A DNA stretch of 20,697 nucleotides from Orycteropus afer (taxonomy: Eukaryota), in NCBI RefSeq assembly GCF_000298275.1, contig NW_006922148.1, positions 1,175,648-1,196,344 of the forward strand, written 5' to 3'. Both the position numbers and the translations under genes were made by a program. The notes beneath the pieces were generated by a model that had not been told where the DNA came from, searched no databases, and saw nothing but the letters and a program-made list of their open reading frames with translations. Positions 521 through 20,697 of the stretch are shown piece after piece. Position 1 is the first letter of the stretch; each line of letters begins with the position of its first letter.

Positions 521-539
521 CAGCCACTTATTTCTTTAT

Positions 540-1235
540 TTGAATTTTTATTGTGATTTGGGTGAAAGTTTACAGAGCAAATTCACTTTCCATATAGGAG
601 TTCACATACACTTTGTCTCATGACAGTTGAGTGCAATTTCTCACAGTGCATCAGCTCTCTTCTCACTTCTTCCCCATAGTTACCTCTTTCCTGTGTCCTT
701 CCCTCCCATGCATTTCTGCCCCCTGAATTGTCTCCCTGTGCATACACGGCCCTTCTGTCTCTCATGATTGATCTCTCCAAGGAGTGTATCTACCTAATGT
801 AAGTGTTCACCTCATATGCCTGTCTTTTGTATGGCTGGAAGCCACAGGAGTGAGTTCAATTCCAGACCTTAAGGGCTGCTAGGGGCCATAGTCTCAGGGG
901 TCTCGCCAGGCTTCATCAGATCAGCAAACCCAGTCCTTTTTTTTTTTTTAATGATTTTGAGTTTTGTTCCACATTGTTCTACCACTCTATCCAGAATCTC
1001 TTACATAGATTGCCCTCTTAGTGGTTGACAGTGGTAGCCAGGCACCATTTAGTTCTTCTAGTCTCATAGTCATATAGGCTGAGGATCTCTTGGTGTACCA
1101 GTCCCCTTGGACTAATTGTTTCCATGTGTCTTTGGTTTTCTTCATTCTTCTTTGCTCTGGATGAAGAGAGACCCATCTTCACATTTAGGTGGCCTGCTGC
1201 AACCATTTTTGAATTATTGTTGTTAGGTGCTGTTG
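540..1235 (-). mobile_element. L1 3'UTR terminal fragment (3' end at ~540, with internal A-run seen as T13 at 943-955)
   Basis: The reverse complement aligns with the 3'UTR of the plus-strand L1 at 13990-14680 and with the plus-strand L1 3' end at 6080-6690. A shared motif reads tatgactatgagac.agaactaga…gctaccac…caacc. The 3' end is T-rich on the plus strand. Confidence 0.55.
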
Positions 1236-2290
1236 AGTCATCTCCGACTAATAGCAACCCTGTGCACAGCAGAACGAAACACTGCCTGGTCCTGTGCCAT
1301 CTCCACGATCCTTGCTATACTTGAGCCCATTGCTGCAGCCTCTGTGTCAATCCATCTTGTTGAGGGCCTTCCCCTCTTTCGTTGACCCTTCACCTTACCA
1401 AGCATGACATCTTTCTTCAGGTGCCTTCTGACACCATGACCAAAGTAGGTGAGATGAAGTCTGGTCATTCTTGCTTCCAAGGAGTGCGTTCTAGCTGTAC
1501 TTCTTGCAGGAAGATTTGTTAGATCTTTTAGCTTTCTATGGTACTATCAGCATTCTTTGCCAGCACCACAACTCAAAAGCATCAACTCTTCTTCAGTCTT
1601 CCTTATTCATTGTCCTGCTCTAACATGCGTATGAGGCGATTGAAAATACTGTGACTTGGGTCAGGTGCACCTTAGTTCTCAAGGAGATATCTTTGCTCTT
1701 CAGCACTTGAAAGAGGTCCTTTGAAGCTGATTTGCCCAGTGGTATATGTCATCTCATGTCCTCACTGCTGCTTCCATTGCCGTTGATTGTAGAACTAAGC
1801 TATGTGAAATCTTTGACAACTTCAATCTTTTCTCCATTTATCGAGATGCTGCTTATTGGTCCAATTGTGAGAATTTTTGTTTTCTTTATATTGAGATGTA
1901 ATTCATACTGCAGACTATTCTTGTCTTCATCAGTTAGTGCCTCAAGTCAGCCTTACTTTCAGGGAGCAAAGTGTGTCTTCAGCATATCACAGGTTAATTA
2001 GTCTTCCTCCAATCCTGATGCCACATTCTTCTTCATATAGTCTAGTTTTTCTTTTTTTTAATTAATCTTCAGCTAAATTTTACTTGCCTGTGATATTAGT
2101 GATATTGTTAGACATTTACTACTCTCAGTTGGATCACCTTTCTCTGGAATGAGTGAAAATACTCTTTCAGTCAGTTGGTCTGGTAGTTCTCTTCCAAATT
2201 TCTTGGCATGGATAGGTGAGACCTCCTATGCTACATCCACTTGTTGAAATATCTCATTGCGTGTTTTGTCTATTCCTGGAGCCTTGTTTA
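1236..2290 (-). mobile_element. RTE/BovB-type LINE, 3' portion (C-terminal ORF + 3' tail), internally deleted
   Basis: The minus ORF 1238-1480 (…YFGHGVRR.LKKDVMLGKVKGQRKRGRPSTRWIDT…REMAQDQAVFRSAVH…) matches the C-terminus of the plus-strand RTE copy (4797-5100: LSYFGHVVRRDLEKDIMFGNVEGK…). The 3' tail (ttattgttgttaggtgctgttgagtcatctccgact) equals the tail shared with the AfroSINEs. The region 2100-2290 reverse complement gives IPKKGDP…NYR.ISL, the RT N-terminal motif. Confidence 0.6.
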
Positions 2291-2294
2291 TCAC

Positions 2295-2845
2295 CAATGC
2301 CCCAGTGCCACTTGAACTTCCCTTGCACCCCCAGTAACCAACAAAATGAATTTCTTTCCCTGAGTAAACCTCTCCTTCATTTTTAACAATAATAGACTCA
2401 TACAATATTTTTCCTTTTGTGATTGACTTCTTTTACTCAGTGTAATGCCCTTTAAATTTATCCATGTTATGAGGTGATTCATGGATTCTTTTTATTTTTA
2501 ATTTTTTTTTTTATTTTAATTTTTGATTTTTGCAGTGTTCCCTTACCTGCCCTCCCACCCCTGGTGACCAACAAAGAAATTTTCCTTCCATATATAAACC
2601 TTTCCTTGACTTTTTACAATAATGAACTAGTACAGTATTTCTCCTTTTATGGTTAACTTATTTCACTCAGCATAATATCCTCCAAGTTCACCCATGTTAT
2701 ACGGTGTTTTGCAGATTCTACATTATTTAATGTGACATAGTATTCCATTGTGTGTATGTGCCGTAGTTTGGTTATCCTTTCTTCTGTTGATGGGCATGTA
2801 GGTTGTTTCCAACTTTTTGCTACTGTAAATAGTGCTGCATGATAG
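2295..2845 (-). mobile_element. Two tandem partial L1 ORF2 C-terminal fragments (2295-2485 and 2525-2845) separated by a T-rich run
   Basis: The minus ORFs 2653-2904 (…HAALFTVAKSWKQPTCPSTEE…HIHTMEYY…ITWVNLEDIMLSEIS) and 2291-2482 (…ITWINLKGITLSKRSQSQKEKYCM…) are L1 ORF2 C-terminus-like. The two DNA segments are about 75% similar to each other. Confidence 0.5.
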
Positions 2846-5125
2846 AATTTTGCAAGACCAATGACTTCTTCATTGCAAATACCTTTTTTCAACAACATAA
2901 ACAACAGCTATACACATGGACTTCACTAGATGGAATACATAGGAATCAGATTGACTGCATCTGTGGGAAGAGGCGGTGGAGAAGTTCAATATCTTCAGCT
3001 AAAACAAGACCAGGAGCTGACTGTGGAACAGACCATCAACTGCTCATATGCATGTTCAAGTTGAAGTTGAAGACAATTAAAATGAGTCCATGAGAACCAA
3101 ACTATGACTTTGATAATATCCATCCTGAATTTAGACACTATCTAAAGAGCAGATTTGATGCATTGGATACCAGTTACTGAAAACCAGAGGAATTGTTGGA
3201 TGACATCATGAACATCATCCATGAACAAAGCAAGAGGTCATTAATAAGACAGGATAGGAAGAAAAGACCAAAATGGATGTCAGAAGAGACTCTGAAACTT
3301 GTGTTTGAGTGGAGAGTAGCTAAAGCTAATGGAAGAAATGACAAGATAAAAGAGCTGAATGGAAAATTTCAAAGAGCAGCTGAAGAAGACAGAACCAGTT
3401 ATTATAATGAAATGTGCAAAGACCTGGAGTTAGAAAACCAGAAGAGAAGAACATGCTCAGCATTTCTCAACCTGAAAGAACTGAGGAAAAAATTTAAGCC
3501 TCGAGTTGCAGTACTGAAAGATTCTATGGACAAAATATTGAATGATGTAGGAAACATCAAAAGAAGATGGAAGGAATACACAGAGTCACTGTACCAAAAA
3601 GACCTGGTCAATCTTCATCCATCTCTGGAGGTGGCATATGATGAAGAATCAATGGTATTGAAGGAAGAAGTCGAAGCTGCACTGAAAGAGCAAAGAACAA
3701 GGCTCTAGAAATTGATGGAATATCCATTAAGATGTTTCAACAAATGGATGCTATGCTGGAGGCACTCATTTGGCTATGCCAAGAGATTTGGAAGACAGCT
3801 ATCTGGCTAAGTGACTGGAATAGATCCATATTTGTACCCATTACAAAGAAAGGTGATCCAACAGAATGTGAAAATTATTGAACAATATTAATATCACATG
3901 CAAATAAAATCTTACTGAAGATAAATAAAAAAACAGTTGCAGCAGTATATTGACAGAGAACTTCCAGAAATGCAAGCTGGATTCAGAAGAGGCCGTGGAA
4001 GCAGGAATATCATTACTGATGTTAGATGGATCTTGGCTTAAAGTAATGAATACCAGAAACATGTTCTCTTGTGTTTTATTGACTATGCAAAAGCATTTGA
4101 TTGTGTGGATCATAACAAATTATGGATAACATTGAGAAAAATGGGAATTCCAGAACACGATTGTACTCATGAGGAACCTGTACATAGATCAAGAGGCTGT
4201 TCAAACAGAACAAGGGGACACTGCATGGTTTAAAATCAGGAATGAAGTGTATCAGGGTTGTATCCTTTCACCATAGTTATTCAGTTTGTATGCTGAGAAA
4301 ATAATTCAAGAAGCTGGATTATACAAAGATGAACATGGCATCAGGATTGGCAGAATGCTCATTAACAACCTGTGATACACAGATGACACAACTTTGCTTG
4401 CTGAAAGTAAGGATGAGTTGAAGCACTTACTGATGAAGATTGCAGACTACAGGCTGCAATATGGATTACACCCCAGTATTAAGAAAACAAAAATCATTAC
4501 AACTGGTGCAATAAGCAGTTTCATGATGAATAGAGAAAAAAATTGAATTGTCAAGGACTTCATATTACTTGGTTCTACAGTCAGCAGCAATGGAAGCAGC
4601 AGTCAAGACATCAGACGATGTATATTGCATTGGGCCAATCTGTTGCAAAAGACCTCTTCCAAGTTATGAAAGCAAAGATGTCTCCTTGAAGATTAAGGTG
4701 TCACTAACCCAAGCCATGATATTTTCAATCACCTCATATGCATGTAAGAGCTGGACAATGAATAAGGAAGATTGAAGAAGAGTTGATGCTTTTGAGTTGT
4801 GGTGTTGGAGGAGAATGCTAAGAGTACCATGGATTGCTAAAAGGACTAACAAATCTGTCCTGGAAGGAGTGCAGCTGGAATGCTCCATGGAAGTGAGACT
4901 GGACGAACTTCGTCTCTCCTACTTTGGTCATGTTGTCAGAAGGGACCTGGAGAAGGATATCATGTTTGGTAATGTTGAGGGGAAGGCTCTCAATGAGATT
5001 GATTGATACATGACTTCAATGGTGGCCTCAGGTATAGCAAGGATTGTGAGGCTGGCACAGGAATGGGCAGTGTTTCGTTCTACTGTGCATAAGGTCGCTG
5101 AGTTGGAGATGACTTGAAGGCACCT
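2846..5125 (+). mobile_element. RTE/BovB-type LINE, 5'-truncated (endonuclease C-terminus, RT, C-terminal domain), pseudogenized
   Basis: ORF 2839-3093 reads …YTWTSLDGIHRNQIDCICGKRRWRSSISSAKTRPGADCGTDHQLLICMFKLKLK (endonuclease C-terminus). The RT region 3880-4500 reads IPKKGDPTEC.NY…DYAKAFDCVDHNKLW…GIP…GV.QGCILSP…ADDTTLLAESKDELKHLLMKI. The C-terminus 4797-5006 reads WCWRRMLRVPWIAKRTNKSVLEGV…LSYFGHVVRRDLEKDIMFGNVEGK. Multiple frameshifts and stops are present. Confidence 0.7.
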
Positions 5126-5150
5126 AACAACAACAACAACAACAACAACA
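5126..5150 (+). repeat. (CAA)n microsatellite forming the RTE 3' tail
   Basis: Direct read: cacctaacaa(caa)7 following the RTE terminal sequence ggagatgacttgaaggcacctaac. Confidence 0.85.
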
Positions 5151-5159
5151 GCTAGTGCT

Positions 5160-6065
5160 GTAGGGAACATGGTGTGCATATATCTCTTATTGTCCTGGAT
5201 CTCACATCTATACCTAGTAATGGGATTGCTGCATCAAATGATATTTCTAATTCCAACTTTTTAAGGAAACACCATACTGCTTTCCACAATGATCCTATCA
5301 TTTTACAGCCCCATCAGCAGGATATGAGAGTCCAAATCTGTCCACATCCTCAGCAGCATGTGTTATTCTCTGTCTTTTTGTACTTTGCTGTTAGTGCTGG
5401 AGCAAGATGGTATCTTGTTGTTTTGATTTGCATCTCTCTAATGGCTAACGATCATGAACATTTCTTCATGTATTTGTTAGCCGCCTAAATATCCTCTTTG
5501 GTGAAGTGTCTATTCATGTTTTTGCCCATTTTTGAATTGGATTGTTTGTCTTCTTGTTGAGGTGGAGTTTTCTATAAATTTTAGAGATAAGTCCCTTGTT
5601 GAATATGTCATTGCTAAATATTTTAGGTCCCCTAAATTTGCCCCTATTTTTTCCCTGAGGAATTTTATAGTTTAGGTTTCACATTTAACTCTTTGATCCA
5701 TCTGGATTTAGTTTTTGTGTATGGTGTGAGGTACGGCTCTTGTTTTATTTTTCTGCAAAGGGCTATCCAGTTTTTCCAACACCATTTGTTAAACAGACAA
5801 TCCCTTCCCCATTTAATGGATTTCAGCCCTTTGTCAAAAATCAGCTAACTGTAGGTCAATAGATGTATTTCTGGGTTCTCAATTGTATCCACTGGTCTAT
5901 GTGTCTGTCGTTGTACTAGTTCCAGGCTGTTTTGACTACTGTGGCTGTATGGTAGGTTTTGAGATCTGGGAGTGTAAGACCTTCTACTTTGTTCTTCTTC
6001 CTCAATAGTGCTTTGCTTATTCAAGGTCTCGTTCCTTCCCATATAAAGTTAGTGATTGACTTTTG
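5160..6065 (-). mobile_element. L1 ORF2 fragment (C-terminal region)
   Basis: The plus ORF 5174-5488 is the characteristic antisense artefact of the L1 ORF2 C-terminus (…IPSNGIAASNDISNSNFLR…), the same as the 12965-13282 antisense ORF opposite a confirmed L1 ORF2 end. The minus ORF 5845-6042 contains …VDTIENPEIHL…, an ORF2 motif. Confidence 0.5.
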
Positions 6066-6079
6066 CATATGTTTAAAGA

Positions 6080-6690
6080 ATGTTGATTGAAGATGAATGC
6101 AAACAGTCTAAGCTACTGGTATACCATGAGGTCCTCAGCCTTTATGACTATGAGACAAGAACTAGAAAGAGCCTAGCTACCACTCTCAACCAGTTAGAGG
6201 AGGATCTATGTAGGAGATCAAAGATAGAGTGGGAGAAGAATGTGGAACAAAACTCAAAATCATTAAAAAAAAAAAAAAAAAGGGACCAGGTTTGCTGGTC
6301 TGATAGAGCCTTATGGAACCCCTAAGACTCTGGCCCCTAGCAGTCCTTCAGGTCTGGTATTGAACCTACTCTTGTGACTTCCAGCCAAACAAAACACAGG
6401 CATATAAAGTAAACATTTACATCAGTAGATATACTTATTGGAGAGATCAAGCACGGAGAATAGAAGGGCTGTATATGTACAGGGAGACAGCTTGGGGGGC
6501 AGGAGTGCATGGGAGGGAAGGACACAGAGAAGAGGTAACTATGGGGAGGAAATGGGAAGAGCGCTGTTGCATTGTGGCAAATTGCAGTCAATATCATGAG
6601 ACAAAGTGTGAACTGCTGTGTGGACAATGAATTTGCTCTGTAAACTTCCACCCAAATCACAACAAAAATTAAAAAAAAAAAAAAAAGAAT
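6080..6690 (+). mobile_element. L1 3'UTR terminal fragment (internal A17 at 6266-6282, terminal A-run 6660-6676)
   Basis: It aligns block-by-block with the L1 3'UTR at 14110-14680 (…atagagtgggag.a.a…ggaacaaaa.tcaaaa… / …caggagtgcat…gaggg…) and is the reverse complement of 540-1110. Confidence 0.6.
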
Positions 6691-6694
6691 GTAG

Positions 6695-7447
6695 ATGGGC
6701 TCTGGATAGGAATTCCACTGAATATATACATTTTCACAATGTTCATTCTTCCTATCCACCAGCATGATGTGTGCTTCCATTTATGTATATCTCTTATGGT
6801 TTCTTGAAGTAGTGTTTTGTAGTTTTCTTTGAACAGGTCTTTTGTCTCCCTAGTGACATGTATTCCCAAATATTTTATTCTTTTGGTCGCTATTGTAAAT
6901 GCTGTTGATTTCCTATTTCCTTTTCAGCAATCTCTTTGCTGGTGTGGAGGAATCCAACTGAGTTTTGTATCCCACCACTATGCCCAATCTCTCATTTAGT
7001 TCCAGTAGTTTTTTTAACTGAGTATCTTGATTTCTCTGTGTGTAGGATCATATCAGAAAATAGGGATAGTTTCACCTTTTCTTTACCAATTTTGATGCCT
7101 TTGTTTTCCCTTTCTTGCCTTATTGCCCTGGCTAGGACTTCTAATACAGTGCTGAATAGAAGTGGTGATAGAAGTCATACTTGCCTGGATTGTGTTTGCA
7201 AGGTGAATGGTTTCAGTCTCTGTCCATTGAGAATAATGTTGGCTGTTGGTTTTTGCATATATGCTCTTTATTATGTAGAGGAAATTTCCCTTCTATTCTT
7301 ATTTTGCTGAGAGTTTTTATCAGGAATGGTGTTGGGGTTTATCAAATGCCTTTCCTGCATCAGTTGATATGATCATATGGTGTTTTCCTTTGTGTAATGG
7401 ATGACATTGATTGTTTTTCTAATGTTGTATCATCCTTGAATACCTGG
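6695..7447 (-). mobile_element. L1 ORF2 (RT-domain part), the 3' side of an L1 interrupted by the LTR element at 7448-9096
   Basis: The reverse complement of 7300-7447 reads PGIQGWYNIRKTINVIHY… (L1 ORF2: [23 protein letters not shown]). The antisense plus ORFs 6936-7310 are typical L1-ORF2-antisense artefacts. Confidence 0.6.
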
Positions 7448-8087
7448 TGTTCTGGTTACCTAGTGCCACTCTGACGGGAAACATACCTCAAATGAGATGG
7501 CCTTAACAAACAGGAGATTATTCTTACAATTTGGAGGCTTTAAGTCCAAGTTCAAAGTGCCAGGCTCTAGGGGATGGATGAAAGCCCCTCAACCTTGGGG
7601 TCCAGCTCTGTCTCCTGCTCCCGGCCCACTGGAGCTAGAAGCATTTCTTCCCTCAGACAGCTGCTGGCTGCTGAGGCTGAGAGCCCCAAGGTTGACAAGT
7701 AAAAAGGCACAGTCCCCATGTTACCAAACCACACAGCAGGCCATTAACTTAAGTCCATTTTAAGTCCCAAGGTTGGCATAGCATAGCAGGCCGCTGAGCA
7801 ACGACACAGCTACATGCAGGGTCCAAGCGTGCCATAGGCTAGAGACCATTCTCAGAGCTTCTCCTTATATACAGGAAGCAGACCACATACCCAAAGGCAG
7901 CTATTCAGCTGCTCCCAGTAGATTCCACCATGGAGTTGACTACCAGTCTCATCATGGGGAATACTAAATCCAGCTGCCCAGCCCCTCAACCAGGCCTAGC
8001 CAAGTTGACATACAAACATAACCATCACAGTTCTATCCCTTGTCAACTTGGCATCTGTACAAATCTTCAATGGGTGGTATCTGTACA
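7448..8087 (-). mobile_element. LTR (full ~640 bp, minus orientation, acting as 3' LTR of a compact element)
   Basis: It begins with TGTTCTGG (minus-strand end …CCAGAACA). Three homologous copies lie at 8789-9096, 14966-15560 and 17063-17621. TATA-like TATATAAGGAG occurs on the minus strand at ~7862-7872. The minus-strand 5' terminus is TGTACA… at ~8061/8087. Confidence 0.5.
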
Positions 8088-8788: not shown

Positions 8789-9096
8789 TGTTCTGGTTAC
8801 CTAGTGCCACTCTGACAGGAAGCATACCACAAGTGGGATGGCCTTGACAAACAGAAGTTTATTCTTACAATTTGGAGGCTTTAAGTTCAAGTTCAAAGTG
8901 CCAGGCTCTAGGGGCTGGGTGAAAGCCTCTCAACCTTAGGGTCCAGCTCTGCCTCCTGCTCCCAGCCCACTGGAGCTAGAAGCATTTCTTCACTCAGACA
9001 GCCACTGGCTGCTGAGGCTGAGAAGCCCCAGGGTTGAGAAGTAAAAAGGCACCGTCCCAATGTTACCAAACCACACGGCAGGCCATTAACTTAACC
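8789..9096 (-). mobile_element. LTR (5' LTR of the compact element; U3-side truncated, ~308 bp retained)
   Basis: About 90% identical to 7448-7760. An AATAAA on the minus strand (tttatt 8858-8863) lies ~65 bp from the LTR 3' end. The copy ends where L1 ORF2 sequence resumes (~9097). Confidence 0.5.
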
Positions 9097-9562
9097 ATCA
9101 CACCTGGTATAACCCCACTTGGTCATAATGTATATTTTTTTCATACATTGTTGGAGTCTGTTGGCTAGGATTTGTTGAAGATTTTTGTGTCTGTGTTCAT
9201 GAGGGATACTGGTCTGTAGTTTTCCTTTTGAGTTTTTGCCTGGTTTTGGTGTGAAGGGTATGCTTGCTTCATAAAATGAATTTGGGAGGGTTCCATCCTT
9301 TTCTTTGTTCTGGAATAGTTTGAGTAGGTTTTGTGTGATATCTTCTCTGAATGTTTGGTAGAATTTTCCAGTGAAACCGTCTGGGCCAGGACGTTTGTTT
9401 ATTGATAATTTTTTTTATGACCTGTTCAGTTTCTTCTGTTATGGGTTTGTTCAAATTTTCTACCTCAGTCTGTGTTAGTTTAGGTAAGTAGTATGTTTCT
9501 AGAAATCTGTCCATTTCTTCTAGATTTTCAAATTTATTGGAGTATAGTTCTTCATTGTATCC
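9097..9562 (-). mobile_element. L1 ORF2 segment (continuation of the interrupted minus-strand L1)
   Basis: The reverse complement of 9097-9140 reads …IHYDQVGLYQV (L1: [15 protein letters not shown]), the same ORF2 position where the 7447 side ends. The minus ORF 9269-9565 reads NLEEMDRFLETYYLPKLTQTEVENLNKPIT.EE.E.VIKK… (L1 ORF2 segment following the endonuclease). Confidence 0.65.
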
Positions 9563-9765
9563 CAATAAACTAAATCAAACTCACTGCTCTCAAATTGGAT
9601 ACAACTCATAGTGACCCCTCCTTGGGTTTCTGAGGTGGCATCACTATAGAAGTAGATTGCCCAACCTTCCTTCTGAGGAGTGACTGGTGGGTTTGAACCA
9701 CCAGCCTTCTGTTTAGCAGTCAAATACCTTAGGCACTGTGCCCCCAGAGCTCTCAGTTTCCTGAT
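9563..9765 (-). mobile_element. AfroSINE-type tRNA-derived SINE (older-looking, CpG-decayed tail)
   Basis: The reverse complement has a tRNA-like head ggagctctgggggcacagtgcctaagg…ggttcaaacccaccag (A/B-box like). The tail gagttgtatccaatttgagagcagtgagtttgattt is a CpG-decayed version of the gagtcggaatcgactcgacggca-type tail. Confidence 0.6.
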
Positions 9766-9967
9766 GTTGTTGTTGTTGTTGTTATGTGCCGTCGAGTCGG
9801 CCCCAACTCATAGCGACCCCTCCTTGGGTTTCTGAGGTGGCATCACTATAGAAGTAGATTGCCCAACCTTCCTTCTGAGGAGTGACTGGTGGGTTTGAAC
9901 CACCAGCCTTCTGTTTAGCAGTCAAATACCTTAGGCACTGTGCCCCCAGAGCTCTCAGTTTCCTGAT
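9766..9967 (-). mobile_element. AfroSINE-type SINE with RTE-like tail and (CAA)6 (plus-strand (TTG)6 at 9766-9783)
   Basis: The head is 161/162 identical to the preceding copy. The tail, read on the plus strand as gttgttatgtgccgtcgagtcggccccaactcatagcgaccc, parallels the RTE 3' end at 1222-1262 and retains 4 CpGs. Confidence 0.6.
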
Positions 9968-12809: not shown

Positions 12810-14690
12810 TATGCCCTGCTGTCCTTGGCAAGTGGAGCCTGTTCTTAACTCCCTGAAATCTGAATGAGAACACTGTCACATTAAATATCCAAAATGAGTC
12901 ATTAGACAGATGCAGATCAAAACAACAAAGAGATATCATCTCACCCCAGCAATGATAGCAAAGTTCAACAGGTCAGAAAATAGCAAATGCTGGTAAGGTT
13001 GTGGAGAGATTGGAACTCTTGTGCACTGCTGGTAGGATTGTAAAATGGTACAACCATTGTGGGGTACGGTATGGCGTTCTTTAAAAAACTGAAAATAGAA
13101 ATACCATTTGACCCAGCAACTCCATTACTAGGAATATATCCTAAAGAGGTGAGAGACAGTGCATGAGTAGACATATGAACACCTGCGTTCATCACAGCAC
13201 AATTCACTATAGCAAAGAGATGGAAATAACCTAAATGCCCATCAACGGATGAGTGGATAACCAAATTATGGTACATGCACACAAAGGAATACTATGCTAC
13301 ATTAAAGAACAATGAGGGATCCACTAATCACCTCACAATGTGAATGAGCCTGGAGGACATTATGCTGAGTGAAATAAGTCAAATGTGGAAGGATGAGTAC
13401 CGTATGAGCCTGTTACTGTAAACAGACAAAAAAGGGTTTGGTTGTGAAAGGGGACTCACATTCTAGGTTACCAGGGTGGGGAGGGAAGGAGAGGGATTTA
13501 TTTCAGGCTAGTTGGGGCCCACGTGCTGATGTGGGTAAGGGGAGGGATATATGGAAAGAGTTTGAGACCACCATGATAACATTAGGAAAAGGGAGGACAC
13601 TGAATCGTGCACATAGGAGATAGATGACAGATGCTAATAACAACCAGTGTGCCCACAATGCTGCATTACCATTAACACCAAACACTAGGCTACAGATAAA
13701 CACATAAACACCAGAGAGGACCAGATTGGGGTCAGTGAACTCTAAACCAAGGATAGATTCAATGCAGGCTAATCTTACATAGGTACCAGTGATACAAAAT
13801 ACCCGTAATCCTTACAGAAACAATAGAAGACAGACACAGAGCAATCCCTCACAGACACCCAGACACTATAGGAGAGAGAGCCAATGGATCTACCGTCTCA
13901 GGACCATAGTACTGGGGGACACCAGACTCAGTTAGCACAACAAAATGCATAAAAGCATTGCTCCTCATCCTACATTGGTGAGTAGTGACTGGGGTCTTAA
14001 AAGCTTAAAAGCTTTCAAGTGGCCATCTAAGATGCACCTGATAGTCTCCTAGCATCGGAAGTGAAGAAGAATTAAAACAACAACAACAAAAAAAAAACAA
14101 AACCAAGGGCATTTGGAAGCAATCAGCCCTAGAACAATGGCCCTCAAGACCAGAACTAGATGGTGCCTGGCTACCAATGCCAACCACTCAGGGAAGGATC
14201 AAATCTGGAAATCCTGGATAGAGTGGGAGGAAAAACATGGAACAAAATCCAAAAACTCAATAATGACCAGAATTACTGGTCGGATGGAGTCTGGTGAGAC
14301 TGTTAATACTATGGCCCTGGAATGCGTTCTGCACCTAGAATAAAACTCACTCCAGGGGCTGGCTCTCAGCCCAATAGTTAACAAGATGTATATGCAGACC
14401 ACTCAACCCAGGGGGATACACATACTCTATGGAAATACATCCCTTGGAGCAGTAGACGATGGGGCACCAGAAGGGCAACATTCACATGGGGGTAATGCAG
14501 GACAGACAGGAGTGCATAACTATGAGGGGCACAGGGGGAGAGTTACTGGGCAGGGAAAGGAGGAGATTGAGTTAGGGTTAGGCATGGTAAATGGGGAGTG
14601 AAACTAAACGTACACATAACATTGAATGTAAAACAAACTCTTAAAATAAAATTTAAAAAATAAATAAATATCCCAAATGGCCACTGCTTG
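12810..14690 (+). mobile_element. L1 3' end: ORF2 C-terminus (~12810-13430) plus long 3'UTR (~13431-14690) ending in an A-rich tail
   Basis: The plus-strand translation reads …RYHLTPAMIAKFNRSENSKCW.GCGEIGTLVHCW…PFDPAIPLLGIYPKE…NDEGSTNHLTM.MSLEDIMLSEISQ. It ends in A-rich aaaataaaatttaaaaaataaataaata. Confidence 0.7.
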
Positions 14691-14965
14691 TAAACATTGA
14701 AAATGGCTGCACCCTCTGGACACCTGAAAGTCCACAGGTCAGTTTTTCTCCTTTTTTGCTGTTTCTGTTTTTAGACATCACCCACCAGCACCAGCACAGT
14801 TGTCCACATAGCCCTGGGCAAACAGGGCCAGTTTTTACGTTGTTAGATTCTAACACCACTTGGAAATACTCAGGCTGTCTGTGCCGTTAGGATAGCTGAC
14901 AGTGTGCAGGTCCGTGTGTCTTCTTACTCACTGTTTTCATTCAGGTTCTTCTGGCAGTTGGTGTT

Positions 14966-15560
14966 TGTTTTGGGTCTCTAGTGCCTTCTAACAGAAGATA
15001 CCACAAATGGGTAGATAGCTTTAAAAAACAGGGGTTTATTCTCTTATTCTTTAGGAGGCTAGAAGTCTGAGTTCAAAGTGCCAGCTCTAGGGGCTGGCTG
15101 AAAGCCCCTCAGCCTTGTACTTCAGCTGTTTCTCTTGCTTCTGGCCCACTGGGGCTGAAGGCATCTCTTCACTCAGGTAGTTGTTGACTACTGAGGCTGA
15201 GAATCCCAATGTCAATAAGTATAATGGCACAGTACCAAAATTATCAAACCACATGACAGGCCACTCATTAAGTGCATTAACAGTCCCAAGATTGGCAGAC
15301 AACTTGGCAGGGTGCTGAACAATGACTCAACTACATGCAGGATTCAAACATGCCAAAAGCTGCAGTCTATACCCAGAGCTTCTCCTTATATACTGGAAGC
15401 TAACCACATCTCTGTGGCAGCTACTCATCTGCTCCAGTAGATTCCACCATGGAGTTGATTACCATTCTCATCATGAGAAATAACTATATCCAGCTACCTA
15501 ATTACTGCAAACCAAGCCTAGCCAACTTGACACACAGCTTAACTACCACAATTGGCACTT
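14966..15560 (-). mobile_element. Solo LTR (same family and orientation as 7448-8087)
   Basis: It aligns along its length with copies 1 and 4. A TATA-like motif (plus-strand ccttatatac at ~15388-15397) is present. AATAAA on the minus strand corresponds to tttatt at 15035-15040. No adjacent PBS was found. Confidence 0.5.
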
Positions 15561-16042: not shown

Positions 16043-16212
16043 TTGCTGTAGAGTCAGATCCAATGCATAGCGACCCCTCCTTGGGTTTCCAAGGCAGTAT
16101 CACTGCGGAAATATATTGCCTGACTTTCCTTCTGGGGAGTGGCTGGTGGGTTTGAACTTCCAGCCTTCTGGTTAGCAGTCAAATGCCTTAGGCACTATGC
16201 TACCAGAGCTCC
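16037..16212 (-). mobile_element. AfroSINE-type SINE (diverged copy)
   Basis: About 85% similar to the 9604-9765 head. The tail gcatagcgacccctccttggg is present. Confidence 0.6.
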
Positions 16213-16266
16213 TATATATGTATGTATGTATGTATGTGTGTGTGTGTATGTGTGTATATATATGTA
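16213..16266. repeat. (TATG)n/(TG)n compound microsatellite
   Basis: Direct read: tatatatgtatgtatgtatgtatgtgtgtgtgtgtatgtgtgtatatatatgta. Confidence 0.85.
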
Positions 16267-16959
16267 TTCAAAAAGAAGCAAAAACTAAGAAATACATTAT
16301 TGACAAATATATACCTGTATGTCAAAAGTAGAAAAGAAAGAAAATAATATAGACAAAAGTCTAAATAGTGGTTAGATTATCTCTGAACATTCACAAGGTG
16401 GTATCAAAAATATGGATGATAGTCTGTTTCTTATGGTTATTTTAGTATTCTTCTTTAAACATTTGTATGTTAATTATTTTTCCCTGGTACCAAATATTTC
16501 AAAATAAAAGAAACATTAAAATAATTCTTTAAACATTCATTCATTCAGTTGAATTTAACGACATTGAAATCTTTGGTTATTTTTGGTAGAGTAGTTTCAG
16601 TGGAGAAGTATGACTAGGTGCCAAATTGTGATAGGTTGGTGAGTGGCAAGCAAATTTTGAAGAGATGGTAGTTGGACACCTCTGTAAAGATTATGAGTGA
16701 GAAAGGTAGAAGAAAGATAGGTAGAAAGTTAGAGGGGAAAGGGTCAGAGAATTGGGAGTTGAGTGGAAGGACTTAAGCATGTTTTGCATTATAAGGAAAG
16801 AGTCAGTAGAAGGGGAAGGCCTTTCAGGAAGAATGGAAAAATTAATTACAAAAGATGAAAAGTGCAAGATGGAGATGGAACTAAGAAGAACAGGCAGGCA
16901 GGATGTTTTGGTCATGATCTTTAAAAAATTTAACAGTATGTCCTAAAACTTTTATTTAT

Positions 16960-17062
16960 TTATTTTTTAAAATATTTATTGTGATTTGGGTGAAAGTTGA
17001 CCAAGCAAGTTCACTTTTGATACAGCTGCTCACATGACCTTTGGCTCATGACATTGACTGCT
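16960..17062 (-). mobile_element. L1 3'UTR terminal ~100 bp (3' end at ~16960 with T-rich plus-strand tail 16935-16975)
   Basis: It matches 545-640 directly (tttattgtgatttgggtgaaagtt.ac…). Confidence 0.45.
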
Positions 17063-17621
17063 GTATTAGACTGCATTCTCTAGAGAAAAAAAAACCAGTA
17101 AAGCTTATATATATGTATATTTATCTTAGGAAAATGGCTTACACACTTATAGGAGCTGACAAGTTCAAAGTTCAAAGTTCCTGGATCAAATGTCAAGCTG
17201 GAGGCTTTTTGACGTCAAGCTGAACAATTTTCCAGACTCTTGCAACTGCAGGGGCTGAGGAGCTCAAGGCTGGCAGGCAGTACACCAGCTGTTGACTCCA
17301 ACAAATGACGAATCCGAGATCTCCAGGCCGAATGGTGGATTGTTCACTCACGGACAGTTGTAGGCAGCACAATAGAATCTCAATCCACGGAAGAATGTCT
17401 CTTTCCCAGGATGTCCATAGATATACTGGAAGCAGGCCACACCTCTAGGGAAATTCCCTTTCAACAGATTGGTTGCTCAAAACATAATTATCTGATCCCA
17501 TCATGGGAATAACCACGTCACAACAGCTTAAACCACACAGAATTGTGGTCCAGCCAAGTTGACACACAGCTCCAACGATCACAGTCCACCCCTTGTCAAC
17601 TTGGCAGTTGTACACATCTTC
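17063..17621 (-). mobile_element. LTR, probable 3' LTR of the adjacent ERV-L-like provirus
   Basis: It is homologous to copies 1-3 and in the same minus orientation as the pol genes directly upstream on the minus strand. It ends (plus strand) …cccttgtcaacttggcagttgtacacatcttc, like copy 1. Confidence 0.5.
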
Positions 17622-17968
17622 TTAACCATATATAATCTCTAAATAAGGACAATTATAAAGTCATATTTGCACCTAACATAATACGCTAACACATGTACAA
17701 CTGAAACGCACTAACTTCATTTACATTTCACAGTTCATAACAGAAGGAAACAAAAATATTTGATGCACATATACAATGAAGAAATACAACAATCACAGTC
17801 CTTGTTTCTGCAGCTGGTCATGTGGTCATAGCTGATATTCAGAACTACCTTCTTCCACCACCCATTCTGTATTTCCCTTGCCCTCAGCAAATACCTCAGT
17901 TGGTTGTGGTTCTTTGCTTGGTGGGGTGACCCAGACCTTCATTCCTGAAGGGTCTGGGCTGTTAGCAG

Positions 17969-18472
17969 TCATATCAGAATTGGGTTGCTGTAATTTTCCA
18001 TTGACTTTAAACACAGGGCATGTAGTACTAACAGACATCCTAAAGAATCTCCTGTGTTCCAGACATGTTCTTCTTTACCTCCATTATGTAATGTCAATCC
18101 AGTTTCCTCTTGGTAATCAGATAGTACAGTAATGCCTTTCTTTGTCTGTTGATCCAGAGGCATGAGGAAGCCAAAATGGCCAGGTGGCATTTTTAATTTC
18201 CAGTTCAATGCAATCAATATTGTGTCTCCAGGTGGGAGTGTTCCTCCCTTTGGGACTAAGATCTCCAGACCCGCAGAGCGTAGGGTAGCAGGGACAGGAA
18301 GCAAAAAGTTTTTGAGCGGATCACTAGAGGAAGTAGTGAGTGGTACCACTCCTGTTTCCTCCCCTTGGTTCCTGGACCTGTGAATCCTGGTCATTGGAGA
18401 AACAGAACCATATATTGGTTGTTGGTTTAGAGCATATACAGCCTCCTGGAGAACATTGCCCCAACCCTTCAA
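17969..18472 (-). pseudogene. ERV pol C-terminal dUTPase domain
   Basis: RSAGLEILVP…PPGDT.LI…GFLMP…GITVLSDYQEETGLTLHNGG (dUTPase motifs AGxDL, GxIDxDYRGE-like). Confidence 0.6.
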
Positions 18473-18487
18473 GGTATTGCCACCTAG

Positions 18488-18787
18488 CTAGCACTGTAAT
18501 AATGTTTTCAGGAGGCCATTCCATCGTTCTATCAAGCCAGCTGCTTCAGGATGATGGGGAACATGGTAAGACCACTGAATTCCATGAGCATAAGCCCACT
18601 GTCGCACTTCATTTGCTGTGAAGTGAGTCCCTTGATCGAAAGCAATACTGTGTGGGATACCATGATGGTGGATAAGGCATTCTGTAAGTCCACAGAGGGT
18701 AGTTTTAGCAGAAGCATTGGGTACAGGGAAGGCAAATCCATATCTAGAATATCTATTCCAGTAAGAACAAAACTCTGTCCTTTCCAT
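18488..18787 (-). pseudogene. ERV pol integrase catalytic core
   Basis: …SIAFDQGTHFTANEV…HVPHHPEAAGLIERWNGLLK (D-D-35-E core motifs). Confidence 0.65.
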
Positions 18788-18957
18788 GATGGAAGTGGTC
18801 CAGTGTAATCAACCTGCCACCAGGTTGTTGGCTGATCACCCTAAGGAATGGTTCCATATCGTGGACTCAGTGTTGGTCTTTGCTGCTGGCAGATTGGGCA
18901 CTCAACAGTGGTGGTAACCAAATCAGCCTTGGTAAGCGGGAGTCCATGTTGCTGAAC

Positions 18958-19929
18958 TCATGCATGACCTCCATTCCTGCCACCATGGCCACTTTGTTCA
19001 TGAGCCCATTGAACAGTGACAGGAGTAGCTTGGGTAAAAGGATGGCTGGTTTCCATTGAATGTGTCATCTTATCCACCTGATTGTTAAAGTCCTTCTCTG
19101 CTGAGTTCACCTTTTGGTGGGCATTCATATGAGACACAAATACCTTTACTCCTTTGGCCCATTCAGAGAGATCTATCCACATACCTCTTCCCCATACATC
19201 CCTATCACCAATCTTCCAATCATGCTTCTTCCAAGTCCCAGACCATCCAGCTAAGCTATTAGCCACAGCCCATGAATCCGTATATAATCGCACATCTGGC
19301 CATTTCTTATCCCATGCAAAGTGAACAGCCATATGCATGGCTTGAAGTTCTGCTCATTGGGAGGATTTCCCTTCACCACCGTCCTTTAAGGAAGTCCCAG
19401 AAAGGGGCTGCAGTGCTGCTGCTGTCCACTTTCGAGTGGTTCCTGCATATTGCACAGAACCATCTGTAAACCAGGCACAAGTTTTCTCTTCCTCAGTGCA
19501 CTGATCATAAAGAACTCCCCATGAGGACATAGGTGCAGACTGGGAGAGGGAAGGTAATGTGACTGGAGTGGAGACCATAGGCATTTGGGCAACTTCCTCA
19601 TGCAACTTACTTGTGCCTTCAGGTGCTGCTCGAGCCCAAACTCTGATATACCACTTCCATTTAATGATGAAGTGCTGCTGTGCACGTCCAACTTTATGAC
19701 TCTGTGGGTCAGGCAACACCCAGTTCATGATGGGCAGCTCAGGCTTTATGGTCACTTGGTGGCTCATGGTTAGGCATTCAGTCTCTACTAAAGCCCAGTA
19801 ACAAGCCAAAAAGTTGTTTCTCAAAAGGAGAGTAGTTATCTGCAGAGGATGGGAGGGCTTTCCTCCAAAATCCCAAGGGTCTGCATTGTGATTCACCAAT
19901 AGGGACCTTCCAAAGACTCCAAACAACAT
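18958..19929 (-). pseudogene. ERV pol RT-connection / RNase H / integrase N-terminal zinc-finger region (two ORF pieces)
   Basis: …CAWFTDGS… (RNase H start), LYTDSWAV…SHMNAHQ…NSAEKDFNNQVDKMT (RNase H), …WAHEQSGHGGRNG (HHCC-like). Confidence 0.6.
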
Positions 19930-20088
19930 TTCTATCTACTACAGACACTTCAAGCATCATTGGATCGCCGGATCATATGGCCCAAGTGGCAGAGAAGCCT
20001 GCATGGCAGCCTGAACCTGTTGCAGAGCCTTCTTTTGTTCTGGGCCTCACTCAAAACTAACAGCTTTCTGAGTCACTTGATAAATAGG

Positions 20089-20538
20089 TCACAGCAACAC
20101 ACCCAAATGAGGGATATATTGCTTCCAAAATCCAAAGAGGCCCACCAGACATAGTGCCTCCTTTTTAGTTGTGGGGGAAACCAGGTACAGTAACTTATCC
20201 TTCCCTTGAGTAGGAATATCTCGACATGCCCCACACCATTGCACCCCTAGAAATTTCACTGAGGTGGAAGGTACTTGAATTTTTGTTGGGTTAATTTCCC
20301 AACCTCTAGCACCCATATGTCTCACCAATAAGTGTAGAGTCATTGATACTTCTTCTTTACTAGGTCCAGTCAGCATAATGTCATCAATATAATGGACCAA
20401 TGTGATGTCTTGTGGAAGGGAAAGGTGATCAAGATCCCTATGGACTAAATAATGATACAGTGCCAGGGAGCTGATATACCCTTGAGGAAGGACTGTAAAA
20501 GTATACTGTTGATAAACATTTACCTGAGGTAGATACAC
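20089..20538 (-). pseudogene. ERV pol reverse-transcriptase fragment
   Basis: …[14 protein letters not shown]…[12 protein letters not shown] (RT motifs LPQG and YxDD). Confidence 0.7.
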
Positions 20539-20697
20539 TCCTTGGAGAGAATAATCATGGGAGAAAGAAGGGCTGCTTATGCACAGGGAGACAGCTCAGG
20601 GGGCAGGACGGCTTGGAGGGATGGACACAGGGAAGAGGTAATTATCGGGAGGAATTGGGAGGGGAGCTGTTGCATTGTGGTAAATTGTGGTCAATGT
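20527..20697 (+). mobile_element. L1 3'UTR fragment (sense on plus strand; continues beyond the window), abutting and truncating the ERV RT
   Basis: It aligns directly with 6470-6610 (…gtacagggagacagct.gggggcagga…gggagggaaggacacag.gaagaggtaa.tatgggaggaaatgggaag…gctgttgcattgtgg.aaattg). Confidence 0.5.

Follow-up and report, generated by a model that had tools for sequence, protein, structure and literature searches.

Endogenous retroviruses (ERVs) of the ERV-L family are documented as lacking env (PMC5930517, PMC524511), belong to class III, whose members are related to foamy viruses (PMC524511), and form a family older than 104 million years (Myr; PMC3758187). Retroviral dUTPase has been acquired three times and its position differs between groups, in that betaretroviruses carry it N-terminal of the protease, non-primate lentiviruses inside pol, and MuERV-L and ERV-L C-terminal of integrase (IN) (PMC1224870, PMC4531489, PMC8961515); the lentiviral domain sits between RNase H and IN (PMC1224870). 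Here, we describe an element on the minus strand of a 20,697-nt stretch of contig NW_006922148.1 (hereafter the window), which is very probably the 3' portion of an ERV-L provirus, class III and env-less, extending from motif B' of the reverse transcriptase (RT) through the 3' long terminal repeat (LTR).

The closest described system is MuERV-L (MERVL; reference Y12713). For the part present, both elements have in common the layout of RT, tether, RNase H, IN, dUTPase-like domain, stop codon, short spacer, polypurine tract (PPT) and LTR, and they also agree in an identical PPT block, in matching LTR termini (TGT... and ...CTCTAGAGAA..CTAATACA) and in the same derived states of the dUTPase motifs. 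Unlike MuERV-L, the window copy is dead and truncated and has additionally lost 15 bp from motif III of its dUTPase-like domain; its LTR measures 522 bp versus an inferred 493 bp, with an essentially unalignable interior, and a synonymous divergence (dS) of about 1 indicates that the lineages have long been separated. HERV-L and the pan-placental ERV-L elements likewise combine a foamy-related pol, the lack of env, a dUTPase after IN and a presence of more than 100 Myr in placental mammals. Their description is reportedly owed to Cordonnier in 1995 and Benit in 1999.

ERV-L elements have also been described from elephants, manatees and hyraxes, as short pol fragments obtained by polymerase chain reaction, and some of their members have kept coding potential (Greenwood et al. 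2004, PMC524511); the window copy would join this complement if its host is afrotherian. The non-mammalian class III ERVs, including XtERV-S and the fish and amphibian loci among our matches (P0002-P0011), feature the same Pfam domain set in the same order, with the dUTPase placed as in ERV-L (PMC8278194), but they are only 36-39% identical, keep all five dUTPase motifs and, in the case of XtERV-S, have an env.

Compared with these systems, the remnant is an ordinary genomic fossil of a kind already known, and there is nothing new at the locus. It matters little beyond annotation, adding a further decayed copy to a family that is well described and occurs in all placental mammals. The locus can, however, be used as a clean worked example of apparent nested insertions (L1 target, then ERV-L, then L1) and, if extended, could serve as a datable marker, while wider interest is confined to the finding, made in passing, that several catalytic motifs are missing from the dUTPase-like domain of mammalian ERV-L although the domain is conserved.

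The pol remnant and its 3' end

An earlier note, made from the letters of the window, had listed a run of five broken minus-strand open reading frames (ORFs) of 149, 191, 126, 99 and 167 aa and had read them as RT, RNase H, integrase and dUTPase, in that order. All five ORFs are present at these sizes, and the translated Pfam search that the note had proposed places all four domains above the gathering cut-off, with RVT_1 in 20089-20538 (E=6e-16), RNase_H in 18958-19338 (E=1e-7), rve in 18488-18787 (E=4e-13) and dUTPase in 17969-18472 (E=1e-7). Three-frame translation reveals the ORFs to be pieces of a single pol reading frame broken by a few stops and frameshifts. For Pfam scoring, these pieces were frame-stitched into a protein of 896 aa, in which the domains follow in the order of RVT_1 (aa 2-91), RT_RNaseH_2 (157-255), RNase_H (343-484), rve (560-656) and dUTPase (739-835).

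Based on tblastn, blastn and a codon-level alignment, the pol remnant occupies 17793-20511 on the minus strand (the strand of all ERV features given here) and corresponds to MuERV-L pol codons 214-1124. Of the RT, only the C-terminal part with the YIDD motif is present (20239-20511), covering RVT_1 profile positions 110-204, and the N-terminal ~110 profile positions are missing. The RT connection or tether, a degenerate RNase H-like domain recognised by Pfam RT_RNaseH_2 and RT_RNaseH, lies at 19678-20043 and is crossed by two frameshifts, at 19967 and 19812, that compensate each other. It is followed by the RNase H (19060-19485; Pfam RNase_H E=4.6e-15 in the stitched pol), in which the motifs TDGS, AEL, YTDS, AHQ and NNQVD stand in the same contexts as in MuERV-L. 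The integrase comprises a zinc finger HX4HX28CX2C (18889-19002), with the spacing of MuERV-L and of the ERV-L entry in PMC8278194 Table 2, and a catalytic core DX58DX35E (18548-18834; rve E=5.7e-19 in the stitched pol) with a -4 frameshift at 18752. The dUTPase-like domain follows C-terminal to the integrase at 18005-18301, as delimited by Pfam dUTPase, alignments to dUTPases in the PDB and a motif alignment.

Among 5.8 billion proteins searched, a single close relative of the stitched pol was found (P0001, 1124 aa), which spans the whole query and holds the same Pfam set, whereas all other matches are at most 46% identical and derive mostly from amphibians, fish and birds. The contigs encoding this protein are ~6 kb long and read gag, pol, ~680 nt and gag again, which is the layout of an env-less retroelement collapsed across its LTR. 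Because its 90% cluster contains Mus musculus Gm52800 and a Mus spicilegus protein, and because of these gag-pol-LTR contigs, we identify it as MuERV-L pol. In a tblastn search, MuERV-L pol residues 214-1117 match 20511-17817 of the window in three frames, with 72, 69 and 71% identity and an E of 0, and the match is thus far beyond chance; overall, amino-acid identity is about 70% over 904 residues. At the nucleotide level, MuERV-L positions 995-3724 and window positions 20511-17799 form a single colinear block of 77-78% identity (blastn: 77% over 2735 nt). A tblastn query with MuERV-L gag gave no match anywhere in the window, and exact look-ups of the 191-aa and 126-aa ORFs in public assemblies gave none either.

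In a separate observation, complete MuERV-L gag-pol units occur in many metagenome assemblies of the ENA (L001-L006), with 753 cluster members on ~6-kb contigs collapsed across the LTR. These units presumably reflect mouse host DNA or RNA in the samples.

For placement of the element, bit scores against solved structures in the PDB and lineage motifs were used in place of a pol tree. YIDD, HX4HX28CX2C and DX58DX35E, for which the ERV-L values are tabulated in PMC8278194 Table 2, are all present with spacing identical to that in MuERV-L. The integrase scores highest against prototype foamy virus (62 bits), followed by deltaretroviral integrase (47), mouse mammary tumour virus (MMTV; 35), Rous sarcoma virus (RSV; 33) and the lentiviral enzymes of human immunodeficiency virus (HIV) and maedi-visna virus (MVV; at most 31), and this proximity to foamy virus IN fits class III. 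The truncated RT matches the enzymes of murine leukaemia virus (MLV) and the related XMRV best (87 bits), then foamy virus (58); MLV, like foamy virus, has YVDD and HX3H (PMC8278194). The dUTPase-like domain resides inside pol and C-terminal to the integrase, the position that the earlier note had taken as the hallmark of ERV-L and that is documented as such (PMC1224870, PMC4531489). Together with the closest protein being MuERV-L pol, this bears out the assignment to the ERV-L or class III lineage made in that note.

The pol frame ends at a TGA (17795-17793), with final residues QLQKQGL* as compared with QLQKRGL* in MuERV-L. From there, a non-coding spacer of about 190 nt (17604-17792; 145 nt in the MuERV-L equivalent), holding no significant ORF or domain, leads to the PPT block CAAGTTGACAAGGGGTGGA at 17585-17603, directly upstream of the LTR. 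This block, identical to MuERV-L at 19 of 19 positions, is the best-conserved non-coding stretch between the two elements and, with the TGT that follows it (17603-17581), forms a first colinear landmark common to both. The second is the LTR end CTCTAGAGAA..CTAATACA at 17062. Between pol stop and LTR start there are only 210 nt, and neither these nor the spacer alone have space for an env, in agreement with the env-less reading proposed earlier. A same-orientation LTR had also been said to follow pol directly; the LTR is indeed there, bounded by TGT and ACA, but it is separated from pol by the spacer and the 19-nt polypurine block.

This 3' LTR covers 522 bp (17062-17583), from TGT at 17583-17581 to ACA at 17064-17062, termini that align with those of the MuERV-L LTR and represent the class III att signature (PMC8278194); its interior boundaries are inferred. 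A TATA-like GTATATCTAT is found at ~17426-17417, and GATAAA at ~17125-17120 is a degenerate poly(A) signal. After the same ACA, the MuERV-L contig continues with GAAGT and TGGTACCAGGAGTGG, the 5-nt linker and primer binding site (PBS) described in PMC5930517. That the LTR interior cannot be aligned with MuERV-L is expected, as the ERV-L LTRs of hamster and mouse are only 55.8% identical (PMC5930517).

The window also features three minus-oriented copies of another LTR family (7448-7980, 8789-9084 and 14966-15500), which have TGT...ACA ends, a TATA-like CTTCC.GTATATAAGG and an AATAAA-like signal in the style of ERVL/MaLR elements. These copies were considered as the missing 5' LTR of the ERV-L element and rejected, since only short colinear blocks are common to them and the ERV-L 3' LTR. 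The copies at 7448-7980 and 8789-9084 are 91% identical and lie 1341 bp apart in a GC-rich stretch; a small non-autonomous element may have left them as its paired LTRs, the upstream one being truncated.

Decay, age and the dUTPase-like domain

Measured against the MuERV-L codons, the pol remnant has accumulated seven premature stops (20091, 20049, 19356, 18960, 18843, 18490 and 17828) and four net frameshifts (-1 at 19967, +1 at 19812, -4 at 18752 and -1 at 18023), as well as a 15-bp in-frame deletion after 18122, and its CpG observed/expected ratio is 0.12. The copy has no coding capacity now. As a crude estimate, seven stops correspond to ~5% neutral substitution since inactivation, with a Poisson range of 2-10%. 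Usual mammalian substitution rates turn a decay of ~5% into tens of millions of years, which gives an equally crude age for the inactivation.

The earlier note had judged the copy to be not extremely old on the grounds of surviving ORFs of up to 191 aa. This judgement is reasonable given about 5% decay in a family of more than 100 Myr, and its decay also seems much less advanced than that of the orthologous >104-Myr element of PMC3758187; the ORF lengths used as the argument, however, are inflated by residues that are non-ERV or out of frame. In the 149-aa ORF, the first ~9 aa (MYLPQVNVY) are encoded by antisense L1, and in the 191-aa ORF, the N-terminal ~40 aa lie outside the pol frame.

Between the window copy and MuERV-L, dS is ~1 and the ratio of non-synonymous to synonymous divergence (dN/dS) is ~0.12, both for the whole and for each domain. 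The two elements thus diverged for the most part before the window copy began to decay, and the low ratio at such a high dS implies that both lineages long evolved as functional elements, which fits a family age of more than 104 Myr (PMC3758187).

The dUTPase-like domain was compared in an alignment of the window copy, MuERV-L (P0001 residues ~946-1090), eight fish and amphibian relatives and dUTPases from the PDB, with an E. coli Dut sequence serving as a guide only. The five canonical motifs are I AGxD, II (P/G)RS(S/G), III GxIDxDYxGE, IV (I/V)AQ and V RGxxGFGS. The non-mammalian relatives keep all of them, as SAGLDL, PRS[SG], GVIDxDYxGE, [IV]AQ[LM] and RGxxGFGS. MuERV-L and the window copy have derived states in common, namely SAGLE[VI], PL[ND]Q, LG[RC]L and no motif V; in both, the Asp of motif I is changed to Glu, and the Arg-Ser of motif II, the Gln of motif IV and the whole motif V arm are lost. 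The window copy itself, with SAGLE, PLDQ, LGCL and no motif V, departs from the canonical pattern of a trimeric dUTPase, and the 15-bp deletion after 18122 removes the GGVID of motif III in this copy only, while MuERV-L retains it. In E. coli Dut, the catalytic Asp lies in this segment.

The dUTPase-like domain of the window copy is dead. Judging from the motif states, the mammalian ERV-L domain in general is probably not a standard dUTPase. Nevertheless, the dN/dS of ~0.12 between the window lineage and MuERV-L indicates a constraint as strong as that on RT or IN, and the domain appears to be under purifying selection. It may tentatively be suggested, as a possibility to which we give less than even weight by a wide measure, that mammalian ERV-L keeps it for a function other than standard dUTP hydrolysis.

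Flanking L1 sequence and alternative explanations

On the ERV strand, the LTR end ...CTAATACA (17062) is directly followed by GCAGTCAATGTCATGAG..., which is 3' untranslated region (UTR) sequence of an L1 in the same orientation, ~100 nt from its A-tail. This L1 segment (16949-17061, minus strand; repeat families D6 and I15) begins its homology exactly after the ACA of the LTR, and because such an exact junction is typical of integrase, we take this L1 to be older than the ERV and to have been its integration target. On the other side, a 5'-truncated L1 3' UTR fragment, opposite in orientation to the ERV (20511-20697, plus strand; repeat families D7, D8 and I8, delimited by junction alignment), interrupts the RT and continues to the window end. 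The earlier note had placed this cut in RT at ~20527 and had attributed it to a plus-oriented L1 3' UTR; the L1 does interrupt RT, but the ERV homology stops at 20511/20510 (...gtttatc/aacagtatac, QQYTF), 16 nt away.

The repeat that flanks the ERV on both sides also occurs at 6115-6700 (plus) and 528-1102 (minus). It is recognised as L1 3' UTR because a related stretch follows a sense L1 ORF2 C-terminus at 12870-13450 (plus), a piece that matches human ORF2p residues 1105-1269 with E=1.7e-60; that stretch lies in the UTR after it, which has an A-rich tail. At the 5' break, the plus L1 reads ...AAATTGTGGTCAAT at 20682-20695 and thereby passes the point, between AAATT and GCAGTCAAT, where the ERV split its target L1; it is thus a separate L1. 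The two flanking pieces were therefore rejected as inverted halves of one L1.

Based on these junctions, the following history may be proposed. The element would have been made by reverse transcription, and its own integrase would have inserted it in an L1 that was already there, within the 3' UTR and ~100 nt from the poly(A) of that target, as suggested by the exact junction between the LTR ...ACA and the L1. The copy then decayed neutrally, with stops, frameshifts and loss of CpG, and an L1 in opposite orientation, 5'-truncated, would have interrupted the RT at 20511. Such a later insertion is the simplest reading of the 5' break. If it survives, the remainder of the provirus (the RT N-terminus, protease, gag, PBS and 5' LTR) would lie beyond the window end, and if a provirus interrupted by L1 is the true state, the 5' LTR would be flanked by L1 3' UTR ending ...AAATTGCAGT, with a 5-bp duplication GCAGT.

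Several points weigh against an ERV-L provirus interrupted in this way. The window holds one LTR only and no gag, protease or PBS, so that a full provirus, a target-site duplication and priming by tRNA-Leu are presumptive; the 5' boundary of the LTR is set by the conserved block of PPT and TGT and not by a second LTR copy; and the 5' break, with its plus-oriented L1, may have come from a rearrangement and not from a simple insertion. In that event the element would still be derived from ERV-L, but the break would represent a deletion, inversion or other rearrangement involving L1, and the remaining provirus would be gone from the locus. The break does adjoin an L1 fragment whose end lies beyond the window (20697), and the two flanking L1 pieces are oppositely oriented, as an inversion could produce. 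Since the plus L1 (AAATTGTGGTCAAT) continues past the split point, it is not the missing half of the target L1, and L1 insertions most commonly consist of a 5'-truncated 3' end, so we regard rearrangement as unlikely, at something like the weight of a minority view.

The identity of the element leaves far less space for alternatives. A Pfam dUTPase domain would also be carried by a class II (betaretrovirus-like) or lentivirus-like ERV, and one distant bird homolog is automatically named 'ERVK pol-like', but the dUTPase here follows the integrase instead of taking the positions known from those groups (PMC1224870), identity to MuERV-L is about 70%, and the integrase scores 62 bits against prototype foamy virus versus 35 for MMTV, 33 for RSV and at most 31 for HIV and MVV. 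Such an identity is already refuted by domain order and homology, and its probability is close to nil; likewise, neither a dUTPase outside pol nor best pol matches to class I/II, the outcomes that the earlier note had named as refuting its reading, is what we found, the dUTPase being inside pol and the best match MuERV-L. An endogenous foamy virus (spumavirus) remnant would account for the integrase being nearest to prototype foamy virus among solved structures, class III ERVs being foamy-related (PMC524511). Foamy viruses, however, feature YVDD and HX3HX29CX2C where the window copy has YIDD and HX4HX28CX2C, and a dUTPase is listed for ERV-L and none for foamy virus (PMC8278194 Table 2); moreover, there is no space for env or accessory genes, and nucleotide identity to MuERV-L is 78%. 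This identity is effectively refuted by motifs, dUTPase, gene space and the MuERV-L identity, and is just as extremely improbable. Slightly more credence, but still very little, is given to the idea that some part of the element, for example the dUTPase-like domain or the LTR, has been domesticated as a host gene or regulatory element and is still selected for at this locus. In mouse, co-option of ERV-L LTRs and gag is documented (PMC5930517), and dN/dS between the window lineage and MuERV-L is low. This low ratio reflects selection during the replication of the lineages, though, while the copy itself carries seven stops and four frameshifts, lacks the catalytic motif III, is depleted in CpG (observed/expected 0.12) and shows no sign of orthologous conservation. 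The 3' portion of an ERV-L provirus thus stands as the preferred reading.

Other repeats in the window

Almost the whole 20.7-kb window is retroelement-derived. A long interspersed element (LINE) of the RTE/BovB type is present in two copies, at ~3100-5147 (plus) and 1253-2161 (minus). Of these, the plus copy holds an ORF of 171 aa that is intact (3193-3708), matches Pfam RVT_1 with its RT domain at ~3900-4500 and has (CAA)n as its tail (5120-5147). Additionally, there are minus-oriented copies of a tRNA-derived short interspersed element (SINE), two of them in tandem and 95% identical (9585-9765 and 9787-9967) and one at 16044-16224. The 3' part of the SINE, GGGTCGCTATGAGTTGG..GACTCGACGGCAC followed by (CAA)n, matches the RTE tail and thus marks it as an RTE-mobilised SINE. 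Scans of the window for tRNAs (ARAGORN) and Rfam families returned no matches, the SINE copies not being called by either.

Tails of (CAA)n are listed for elephant RTE1_LA, hyrax RTE1_Pca, AFROSINE2-type SINEs and rare horse elements (PMC6007223), and the SINE copies are consistent with the AFROSINE2 type. The (CAA)n-tailed RTE and SINE copies suggest, without being proof, an afrotherian host, as the earlier note had guessed. In a homolog search, the 171-aa RTE ORF gave a single match (P0072), a 126-aa 'hypothetical protein' of Pseudomonas sp. MOB-449 (NCBI) with 75% identity, which is most likely mammalian host-DNA contamination in that assembly.

Further L1 sequence includes an ORF2 C-terminal piece at 5174-6110, in which the L1 is antisense on the plus strand, directly upstream of the sense L1 3' UTR at 6115-6700 with its A-tail. 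Such an arrangement looks like the product of twin priming, a 5'-inverted L1 insertion, or of two insertions made independently. Other L1 fragments are found at 12870-14720 (plus), 9269-9565 (minus), 528-1102 (minus) and 2723-2837 (minus); the first comprises a sense ORF2 C-terminus with the full ~1.2-kb 3' UTR, and in the second, an ORF of 98 aa that derives from just past the endonuclease domain is intact.

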